A DNA stretch of 50,131 nt from Candidatus Woesebacteria bacterium (GTDB taxonomy: Bacteria; Patescibacteriota; Microgenomatia; UBA10105; UBA927): positions 1 to 50,131 of the forward strand of contig JBGALL010000004.1 in NCBI GenBank assembly GCA_044223895.1, read 5' to 3'. Numbering within the stretch: position 1 is the first letter of the stretch; each line of letters opens with the position of its first letter. The notes under the pieces were generated by a model. It saw only the letters and a list, made by a program, of their open reading frames with translations. It ran no database searches and had not been told where the DNA came from. The position numbers and the translations under genes are program-made. Below are positions 1 to 1,114 of the stretch, in pieces.

Positions 1-921
1 CTGAGTACTTTTTCCACTAAATTTCTGATGATTATTTAAATCGAAATTTGTACGGTAGGCCAGTCCATACAGTTCTTTCTGTCCAAATGGGAATTCAAAC
101 TCAAAATCGATAGTTCGTTTAGAATAATGAGCACGCTCTCCATCAGGAATATCGACTTCATGCACTTTGGATTCATCGATACCAGTTATTTGCATCCATT
201 TATGCATCTCTTGTCGCCATTCTTCAAATTTTTCTTGCCATTCTGTATCTTCTTTTGGTTCTTTGAAGAAGTATTCGATTTCCATTTGTTCAAATTCTCG
301 AGTACGGAATATAAAATTTCCCGGAGTGATTTCATTACGGAAAGCTTTTCCAATTTGGGCTATTCCAAACGGAGGAGCTTTGGCAGTAACTGTTTGTACG
401 TTAGGAAAATCGACAAACATTGCCTGAGCTGTTTCTGGTCGGAGATATACGGTATTACTTGAATCTTCTACTGGTCCGATAAATGTCCGGAACATAAGAT
501 TGAATTGTTTTGGACGATCCCAACTTTTCTTTTTACACTCAGGACAGGTAATATTTTGCTGCAAATATTCCTGACGATTAGCTTCATCTGTTCCGATTTC
601 TGTCAGTTGTTCAGCAGAGAGTAAGTGATCTACTCGAAAACGAGCATGACAATACTTACATTCAACCAGAGGATCTGTAAAATTAGCCACATGTCCTGAC
701 GCTTCCCAAACTTTGGGATTCATTATCAAAGCTGCATCGATACCAACCACATCTGTACGTCCATGAACAAAGGTTTTCCACCAGAGTTGTTTAATATTAT
801 TTTTTAACTCTACTCCAACTGGTCCATAGTCCCAAGAGTTAGCTAATCCTCCATAAATCTCTGATCCAGGGAAGATAAATCCTCGGCGTTTACATAATGC
901 AACGATAGTTTCGATAGTCAT
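1..921 (-). CDS. glyQS: Glycine--tRNA ligase, alpha2 type (3' end runs off the window)
   Basis: Not in the ORF track. Manual translation from ATG at 921 gives MTIETIVALCKRRGFIFPGSEIYGGLANSWDYGPVGVELKNNIKQLWW...VWEASGH...F TDPLV. An AGGAGG Shine-Dalgarno lies just upstream, and a Gly T-box precedes it. Confidence 0.96.
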   Translation of the reverse strand, partial: MTIETIVALCKRRGFIFPGSEIYGGLANSWDYGPVGVELKNNIKQLWWKTFVHGRTDVVGIDAALIMNPKVWEASGHVANFTDPLVECKYCHARFRVDHLLSAEQLTEIGTDEANRQEYLQQNITCPECKKKSWDRPKQFNLMFRTFIGPVEDSSNTVYLRPETAQAMFVDFPNVQTVTAKAPPFGIAQIGKAFRNEITPGNFIFRTREFEQMEIEYFFKEPKEDTEWQEKFEEWRQEMHKWMQITGIDESKVHEVDIPDGERAHYSKRTIDFEFEFPFGQKELYGLAYRTNFDLNNHQKFSGKSTQ

Positions 922-938
922 ATTTCCTCCTTTTTGCC

Positions 939-975
939 AAAAAAAAAGCCCTACCACAATATTTTTGTGATAGGG
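939..975 (-). terminator. Intrinsic terminator/attenuator of the T-box leader
   Basis: CCCUAUCACAA-AAAUA-UUGUGGUAGGG 11-bp stem followed by C and U9. It shares CCCU with the antiterminator. Confidence 0.9.
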
Positions 976-1080
976 ATCCCGACTAAGTCGAGACGGTTCC
1001 ACCCTACTTCCACATACCATTTGGTACATGGCCGCTTCGTTAAATGCACTCCCTCATGCCATTGAGATCAACGTGTAGTG
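939..1080 (-). ncRNA. T-box riboswitch leader (Gly, GGC specifier), transcriptional type, ultra-short Stem I
   Basis: Antiterminator AGGG-UGGAACC-GUCUCGA-CUUAG-UCGGGAU-CCCU (1005-972). K-turn Stem I CAC-GUU-GA-UCUCA-AUGGCA-UGAGG-GA-GUG (1075-1047). Stem III-like hairpin at 1033-1010. A competing terminator overlaps the antiterminator. Confidence 0.9.
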
Positions 1081-1085
1081 TACTA

Positions 1086-1114
1086 AGTGTAAAGAATATG
1101 GAAGGTTGTGTCAA
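1086..1114 (-). promoter_or_regulatory. sigma70-type promoter for the T-box/glyQS transcript
   Basis: TTGACA (1114-1109), 17-nt spacer, TACACT (1091-1086). Predicted TSS ~1080, just before Stem I. Confidence 0.8.

Follow-up and report, generated by a model that had tools for sequence, protein, structure and literature searches.

A glycyl T-box leader of reduced architecture upstream of glyS in a Candidatus Woesebacteria genome

The glyS leader

The DNA considered here (the window) is the complete 50,131-nt contig JBGALL010000004.1 of a Candidatus Woesebacteria bacterium (GenBank assembly GCA_044223895.1; 1.9 Mb in 135 contigs, 82% complete). Close to one end, on the minus strand, it carries the first part of glyS, the gene for glycine--tRNA ligase, preceded by a leader that spans positions ~1080 to 939. 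The leader is a glycyl T-box leader of reduced architecture; the form is conserved and widespread and, judged from its sequence, very likely functional as a tRNA-sensing riboswitch. All features described below lie on the minus strand and are listed in the direction of transcription.

The regulated gene occupies positions 1..930 when its Shine-Dalgarno sequence (SD; GGAGG, 930-926) is included. Its ATG is at 921-919, and the open reading frame (ORF) is truncated by the contig end after 307 amino acids. The product is a glycyl-tRNA synthetase (GlyRS) of the dimeric type, with 420.8 bits on NCBIfam NF003211 (cut-off 312) and further matches to TIGR00389 glyS_dimeric and Pfam tRNA-synt_2b; its best GlyRS relatives are Patescibacteria records. 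On the 5' side of the leader are an ORF at 1135-1848, which ends 57 nt upstream of the K-turn described below, and recO. The 238-residue product of this ORF, which lies between recO and the leader, has no Pfam or NCBIfam match.

A sigma-70-type promoter is found at 1114-1086, with TTGACA at 1114-1109, a 17-nt spacer and TACACT at 1091-1086 (10 of 12 matches), and transcription is predicted to start near 1080, about 5 nt 5' of the K-turn. Stem I is only 29 nt long (1075-1047) and consists of a K-turn, a 5-bp stem and a hexaloop. In the K-turn, the C-stem is formed by CAC 1075-1073 with GUG 1049-1047, the bulge is GUU 1072-1070, and the tandem G.A pairs join 1069-1068 with 1051-1050. Above these, UCUCA 1067-1063 pairs with UGAGG 1056-1052, and the stem is capped by the apical loop AUGGCA (1062-1057), which presents the glycine codon GGC (1060-1058) as specifier, with the purine A1057 next to it. 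Stem I folds by itself at -4.7 kcal/mol. The two strands of the K-turn pair across a hairpin of 16 nt, which leaves no space for the insertion that a longer Stem I would require.

Stem I is followed by a single-stranded linker of 15 nt, CAUUUAACGAAGCGG (1046-1032), in the place where Stem II and the IIA/B pseudoknot would be; nothing else separates Stem I from Stem III. The 3' end of the linker is the purine string AAGCG flanking Stem III, a 9-bp helix with loop AAAU followed by AA (1031-1010; -11.9 kcal/mol). Next comes the antiterminator (1006-971), identified by alignment, model and fold alike: helix A1 pairs UAGGG 1006-1002 with CCCUA 975-971, the 7-nt T-box bulge UGGAACC (1001-995) lies between the two helices, and helix A2 (994-976) has a G994.U976 wobble at its base. 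The discriminator domain of T-boxes is described, in the part of the source drawn on here, as a Stem III flanked by 5'-RRRxG and AA-3' together with an A2 whose basal pair is a G.U wobble (PMC7583486); the window leader has each of these, as AAGCG-Stem III-AA and the basal G.U.

The competing structure is an 11-bp intrinsic terminator (975-949) that recruits the 3' strand of A1 and is present in the minimum free energy fold. A U9 tract (947-939) lies downstream of this hairpin and ends 8 nt short of the SD, which remains free. The terminator search returned one terminator here, against 0.1 expected in shuffled sequence. ViennaRNA energies of -42.1 kcal/mol for the terminator form and -31.7 kcal/mol for the antiterminator form favour termination by about 10 kcal/mol, and the default state is thus off.

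The specifier and the bulge can both be compared with the tRNAs of the same genome. The genome encodes a tRNA-Gly(GCC) with U73 as discriminator, so that GGC is complementary to its anticodon and the variable A of UGGA to its discriminator, and the regulated gene is the corresponding glycine--tRNA ligase. U73 is also present in the CCC and UCC isoacceptors. An earlier, sequence-only reading of this stretch had proposed the pairing of UGGA with U73, and the genome's own tRNA-Gly(GCC) bears it out. The same reading had placed the promoter, Stem I, Stem III, antiterminator and terminator where we find them, to within one base; it had also recognized the linker, whose length it gave as 14 nt rather than 15.

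At the Rfam gathering threshold, no match is reported in the window. In a permissive scan of 401 nt the T-box family RF00230 scores 18.2 bits (E 0.055), far below its gathering score of 93, and standard annotation would therefore miss the leader. In this alignment, Stem III, the T-box sequence and the antiterminator are matched with high posterior probability, as the sequence-only reading had anticipated, and 17 nt stand where the model has 86 positions of upper Stem I; distal Stem I is thus absent. A covariance model built from 31 related leaders, from which the window and its nearest relative (L007) had been excluded (model R2), gives the leader 66.8 bits at E 1.6e-14; neither the 50-kb window nor the 1.9-Mb genome contains another real match.

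Related leaders and their conservation

Related leaders were collected in several ways. Among the 80 best GlyRS loci, a T-box core is found upstream of glyS in three (L007, L027 and L083); a fourth core match, L053, is not a T-box. The three leaders share the Stem I plan of the window and build it from other stems (UCUUAG/CUAAGG, UCCUA/UAGGG and AGGUG/CGCCU), with GUGGCG or AUGGCA as loop. A scan of 401 genomes of the phylum with the 12-base T-box core AGGGTGGAACCG gave 36 matches. By a rough count the reversed control was about as frequent, so most of these are chance matches, and about 10 look T-box-like by eye; they include four further minimal leaders (L088, L098, L099 and L100). The same scan also yielded a glyS leader that is clearly not minimal, with a long Stem I and a GGUGCAA-type distal region (L093:1437-1538). 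Two other glyS-linked leaders of the phylum, L095:1453-1533 and L097:1438-1529, are likewise not minimal and differ in their 5' halves. One candidate, L109 (genome G083), has a CUUGGCAA hairpin with an unclear K-turn and scores 32 bits; it was left out of the counts.

Searching the window's class (151 genomes) with the model, we find minimal glycine leaders in 14 genomes, including the window's own, and three more are borderline. Over the entire collection, the pattern TGGC..GAG..AGGGTGGAACCG, which is biased to UGGC, matches at least 120 stretches, most of them chance matches or long-Stem-I leaders; 12 usable minimal leaders are among the matches listed. Carriers in the Bacillota include Acidaminococcus intestini DSM 21505, metagenome-assembled genomes of Oscillospiraceae/Clostridiales, and uncultured Bacilli and 'Tenericutes'. 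In A. intestini DSM 21505 the minimal leader precedes an ORF that can be read by eye as a putative glyQ. Its order was examined further with the minimal model: 66 of 101 genomes have a match at E 1e-8 or better, 16 matches reach at least 66.7 bits, and the minimal form is present in all 15 of these that were fetched. All eight matches inspected at 50-61 bits are ordinary long-Stem-I glycine leaders, so both forms exist within one order.

The comparison set consists of 33 rows representing 32 distinct leaders, aligned as A5; the borderline class-level matches L252, L253 and L258 were excluded from it. Two other alignments had errors, in the 3' strand of Stem I (A1, made with MAFFT) and in several Stem III registers (alignment A2). 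For this reason, counts were made on the model-fitted A5. Standard pairs fill 91.2% of the cells, compared with 63.8% in column shuffles and 37-51% when the partners are slid, and the covariation score of 0.703 (0.196 in the shuffles) was reached by none of 500 shuffles. Changes on both sides of a pair are seen in five of five pairs of the Stem I stem, two of three in the C-stem, all seven modelled pairs of Stem III and four of five in helix A2. The UGA and GA of the K-turn are invariant or nearly so (as seen in alignment A2), the position beside the G.A pairs is non-Watson-Crick in 15 of 32 leaders, as in K-turns, and 27 of 32 retain the basal G.U pair of helix A2.

GGC lies within the apical loop, most commonly of 6 nt, in all 33 rows, and UGGAACC is present in all 33. 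The base 3' of GGC is A in 28 rows, G in four and U in one. GGC was also recovered where the search had not required it: in all three T-box-bearing glyS loci, the four core-scan leaders and 14 class-search rows. The base 5' of GGC is U in 27 of the 33 rows, and in 15 of 21 once the rows from the UGGC pattern are set aside; the other rows have G, A or C. An extra U:A37 pair was considered as a general compensation for the lost contacts and rejected, because this U is not invariant.

The longest downstream ORF matches the GlyRS of the window in 30 of 33 rows. The ORF behind another leader, L193, was read by eye as a putative glyQ, and the two remaining rows (the upstream copy of L240, and L243) are first elements of tandem leaders. 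A run of at least five T within 90 nt downstream occurs in 28 of 33 rows. The linker measures 14-28 nt across the set; the Stem II domain typically takes about 70 nt, according to the portion of the review used here (PMC7583486), and hence cannot fit. Neither a distal Stem I nor a Stem II is present in any of the 32 leaders. These leaders back the sequence-only reading's view of a termination-type element lacking both structures. The check that it had proposed, for covariation and an invariant GGC loop in related leaders, comes out in its favour, with covariation in Stem I, Stem III and A2.

A promoter that ends no more than 25 nt from the K-turn is found in 24 of the 32 leaders, compared with 0-2 of 28-32 in control windows of equal size shifted by 100-400 nt. 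A promoter directly upstream of the K-turn in so many leaders argues against a longer Stem I, and against a far-upstream start, which the sequence-only reading had named among the observations that would undo it. RNA evidence comes from metatranscriptomes, in which four runs of one study contain parts of the window as contigs. One contig of 237 nt (789-1025) connects Stem III with glyS across the terminator; this hints weakly at readthrough RNA, with DNA carry-over as another possible source. No contig from these four runs covers 1026-1700, which makes them uninformative on the start.

Several related contigs deserve separate mention. In L007, L027 and L148, a coding sequence that by eye resembles the end of recO runs straight into the leader. 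Contigs labelled 'uncultured Gammaproteobacteria' or 'Bdellovibrionales' (L007, L017, L027, L148 and others) encode GlyRS 60-73% identical to that of the window, and L007, L027 and L148, under such labels, also bear the minimal glycine leader; the labels look like binning or naming errors.

Tandem minimal glycine-type T-boxes occur in three genomes of the same class (L240:1326-1611, L243:1336-1614 and L252:787-1079). In L240 an 80-residue ORF lies ahead of glyS, and in L252 the loop of the second copy is UGGAA, with GGA as a possible specifier. A terminal U tract seems to be missing from the second copies, which apparently pair with the SD instead. In the Patescibacteria leader L232:2699-2810, which is minimal and glycine-type, there is no U tract in the ~60 nt downstream, and the helix that competes with A1 overlaps AGGAG just ahead of a GUG start; this leader may act on translation.

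Relation to known T-boxes

In models of T-box function, tRNA capture needs either the T-loop platform of Stem I (Classes I and II) or the S-turn clamp of Stem II (Classes III and IV), and an exception is accepted for glycine T-boxes with respect to Stem II alone. A 2023 paper, in the portion drawn on here, recognizes 'at least four extant classes' (PMC10482949). Class I has a long Stem I and a Stem II; Class II is glycine-specific, with a long Stem I and a linker replacing Stem II; in Class III the specifier occupies an apical loop of 5-6 nt on a short Stem I, Stem II is required and control is mostly translational; and Class IV has an intermediate Stem I (PMC10482949). As the classes are described there, the minimal form fits none of them, because it combines a Stem I of the Class III type with a linker of the Class II type and a terminator. 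The available sections of a 2024 survey of glycyl T-boxes cover long-Stem-I variants only (PMC11404447). In the literature searched we found no description of the form, and an earlier mention, perhaps as 'truncated Stem I', is possible in older T-box surveys or in TBDB supplements.

Much is shared with Class II, as represented by glyQS of Bacillus subtilis and glyQ of Oceanobacillus/Geobacillus: glycine specificity, GGC followed by a purine, a basal K-turn, a linker in place of Stem II, Stem III, the UGGAACC bulge, a terminator and control of a glycyl-tRNA synthetase gene. However, the window leader has no upper Stem I, AG bulge or distal loop, and so none of the interdigitated T-loops that dock the tRNA elbow. 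Its specifier sits in a hairpin loop, whereas that of Class II is in an internal loop with an S-turn. Its Stem I of 29 nt compares with roughly 85-90 positions in the RF00230 model, and neither this leader nor the other members of the 32-leader set has the Stem I that defines Class II.

With Class III (ileS of Nocardia farcinica and Mycobacterium tuberculosis), as the cited part of the 2023 paper describes it, the leader has in common a short Stem I without T-loop platform, an apical specifier loop of five or six nucleotides and a K-turn below it (PMC10482949). Class III, however, needs the S-turn of Stem II together with the IIA/B pseudoknot as a clamp, and the window leader has its 15-nt linker instead. 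By structural assessment the output is an intrinsic terminator, in contrast to the mostly translational Class III, and the amino acid is glycine, not isoleucine.

Also close are the short-Stem-I T-boxes of the same genome and class (valS, ileS and proS of this assembly, G000, and Ile/Asp leaders L251 and L256), which share the lineage, the K-turn, the apical specifier and intrinsic terminators. These leaders keep an AGUAGA-type S-turn Stem II, and most keep IIA/B; only the glycine leaders drop Stem II. In the window's own genome, L002:1501-1652, L005:1501-1691 and L003:1501-1679 (contigs C32, C1 and C12) have GUC, AUC and CCC in their apical loops, combine the short Stem I with Stem II and IIA/B, and end in U-tract intrinsic terminators. 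By eye they precede valS, ileS, and a gene for a tRNA-binding-domain protein followed by proS, respectively. The alaS leader of the same genome (L001) has a long Stem I. The assembly itself (2.7% contamination) is large for the phylum, at 1.9 Mb compared with 0.6-1.4 Mb in most sampled relatives.

The sequence-only reading had suggested a distinct reduced class in a genome resembling the Candidate Phyla Radiation (CPR). The reduced form holds, and the GlyRS relatives agree with a CPR-like host; the form is not specific to the CPR, since it occurs in Bacillota too. The minimal glycine T-box is a variant of the known T-box system rather than a new kind of system.

Proposed mechanism and competing explanations

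We consider it highly probable that the leader is a functional, transcription-terminating glycyl T-box riboswitch controlling glyS, with the smallest set of T-box parts in this analysis. The observations set out above concern how the leader is built, how well the form is conserved and covaries, the agreement of specifier and discriminator with the tRNA, where the promoter lies, and an energy balance that favours the terminator; from these we infer tRNA binding, charge sensing and a means of compensation for the missing contacts.

In the proposed mechanism, transcription would begin about 5 nt ahead of the K-turn, and the 29-nt Stem I would offer the GGC of its hexaloop to the GCC anticodon of tRNA-Gly, with the K-turn and the 15-nt linker aiming Stem III and the antiterminator at the tRNA 3' end. 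When the tRNA is uncharged, its UCCA end would pair with the UGGA of the bulge, A1 would be held and the polymerase would read into glyS. When it is charged, A1 would not be held, and its 3' strand would join the 11-bp terminator, so that transcription would stop at the U9 tract.

Because the leader has neither a T-loop platform for the elbow nor a Stem II S-turn clamp, the tRNA would be held by two base-paired contacts only. What might make two contacts sufficient is the all-G/C codon-anticodon helix, presented by a hairpin that resembles an anticodon arm (a 5-bp stem with, in most leaders, an N-U-GGC-R loop) and stacked on the 3' purine. By analogy, the Stem I hairpin may itself behave as an anticodon arm and give a stable loop-loop complex; the idea draws on the complexes formed between tRNAs with complementary anticodons. 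Glycine T-boxes are thought to dispense with Stem II because GGC:GCC pairing is strong, as stated in the part of the review used here (PMC7583486). Other short-Stem-I leaders of this lineage (Ile, Val, Pro and Asp) have retained Stem II, in agreement with the view that both losses are tolerated only with the all-G/C pairing of glycine.

Several points weigh against a working T-box. For the glyQS Class II T-box, the cited part of one study reports a loss of first-step affinity of about 50-fold when the T-loop/elbow contact carries a point mutation (PMC6197855), and the sections used of another call Stem II essential for T-boxes whose Stem I is short by nature (PMC7583486). On these partial accounts, a leader with neither would be expected to bind tRNA weakly. 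The RF00230 model scores the leader far under its threshold (18.2 vs 93 bits), and tRNA binding and antitermination are inferred for every member of the set. The pair counts come from model-fitted alignments, which lean toward structure, and the related leader sequences are not independent. Finally, 12 of the 33 rows came from a pattern requiring UGGC, and the base before GGC varies.

The expected weakness of two contacts alone is also the starting point of the alternative that survives best, namely a tRNA-sensing T-box that depends on a third partner, which might be a protein that binds the K-turn or the tRNA, or else host-specific slowing or pausing of transcription. Strict retention of the K-turn would suit such a partner, as would the gene, read by eye as encoding a tRNA-binding-domain protein, that precedes proS behind another T-box of the same genome. 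On the other hand, the L7Ae family (PF01248) was not found in the genome, which at 82% completeness leaves its absence unproven; the CPR and Negativicutes hosts are so different that a single shared special factor becomes less likely; and the linker of the model consensus shows no conserved extra motif. We regard this explanation as unlikely, if still worth keeping in view.

A decayed remnant is less probable again, and we give it little credence. The leader would then be a plain constitutive attenuator, or a T-box that has lost tRNA sensing, with the GGC loop and UGGA as leftovers. Both of the accessory tRNA contacts that matter in studied systems are indeed absent, and the presence of a T-box at just 3 of 80 CPR glyS loci means that the regulation is dispensable in the phylum. 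Decay is nevertheless hard to reconcile with GGC and UGGAACC in every row and compensatory changes in every helix, with an intact choice between terminator and antiterminator, and with the retention of these features across both Patescibacteria and Bacillota.

It is very improbable that the leader is an ordinary Class II glyQS-type T-box that starts further upstream, with the hairpin as the base of a long Stem I bearing the double T-loop platform. The global Rfam alignment does extend the 5' end of the model to 1208, and the RNA contig, which ends at 1025, is silent on the start. However, that same alignment replaces 86 Stem I positions with 17 nt, the K-turn strands span the 16-nt hairpin only, and ORF 1135-1848 ends 57 nt ahead of the K-turn. 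The promoters close to the K-turn in 24 of 32 leaders add to this, and true long leaders of the A. intestini order are quite different in appearance and score lower with the minimal model (50-61 bits vs at least 66.7). Equally improbable is translational control by sequestration of the ribosome-binding site, as in actinobacterial short-Stem-I T-boxes: short-Stem-I classes are mostly translational in the part of the 2023 paper used (PMC10482949), and L232 lacks a U tract and has its alternative helix over the SD, but in the window that helix is an 11-bp, G+C-containing hairpin with U9, 8 nt short of a free SD, and T runs follow in 28 of 33 rows.

Returning to the terminating glycyl T-box, we can ask how far the family extends the known range. 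It is quite possible, if somewhat doubtful, that it represents a fifth natural T-box architecture, in which two base-paired contacts are enough to recognize the tRNA and to sense its charge and which arose repeatedly from Class II. Its parts would be a short Stem I with apical specifier and a terminator, with Stem II dispensed with. Counted from its K-turn through the end of A1 it takes up ~100 nt, which makes it the smallest natural T-box in this analysis, and its Stem I hairpin would be a mimic of an anticodon arm, kissing the anticodon loop of tRNA-Gly. Repeated origin, probably by deletion of upper Stem I, is suggested by coexistence with Class II in one order of Negativicutes and by the occurrence of the form in Patescibacteria, Clostridia and uncultured Bacilli as well.

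A natural, conserved family with neither support would set a lower limit for a tRNA-sensing riboswitch, and it offers a test of whether the strength of GGC:GCC pairing makes accessory contacts dispensable. It can also serve as a ~100-nt scaffold for engineering tRNA-responsive switches. The minimal form before the putative glyQ of A. intestini, a cultured organism, makes the question accessible at the bench, with the long-Stem-I relatives of the same order as comparators. As Rfam annotation misses such leaders (18 vs 93 bits), T-box regulation is probably under-counted in the CPR and in some gut Bacillota.

A further leader may go beyond even this set of parts. L265:1501-1581 is 81 nt long and has a K-turn, the apical loop UUGUCAA (with GUC, valine), UGGU and a terminator. 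About 20 nt, including the string GAGUAGAA, separate its Stem I from A1, and neither a Stem II helix nor Stem III is apparent there. If it is real, non-glycine T-boxes can be reduced still further.

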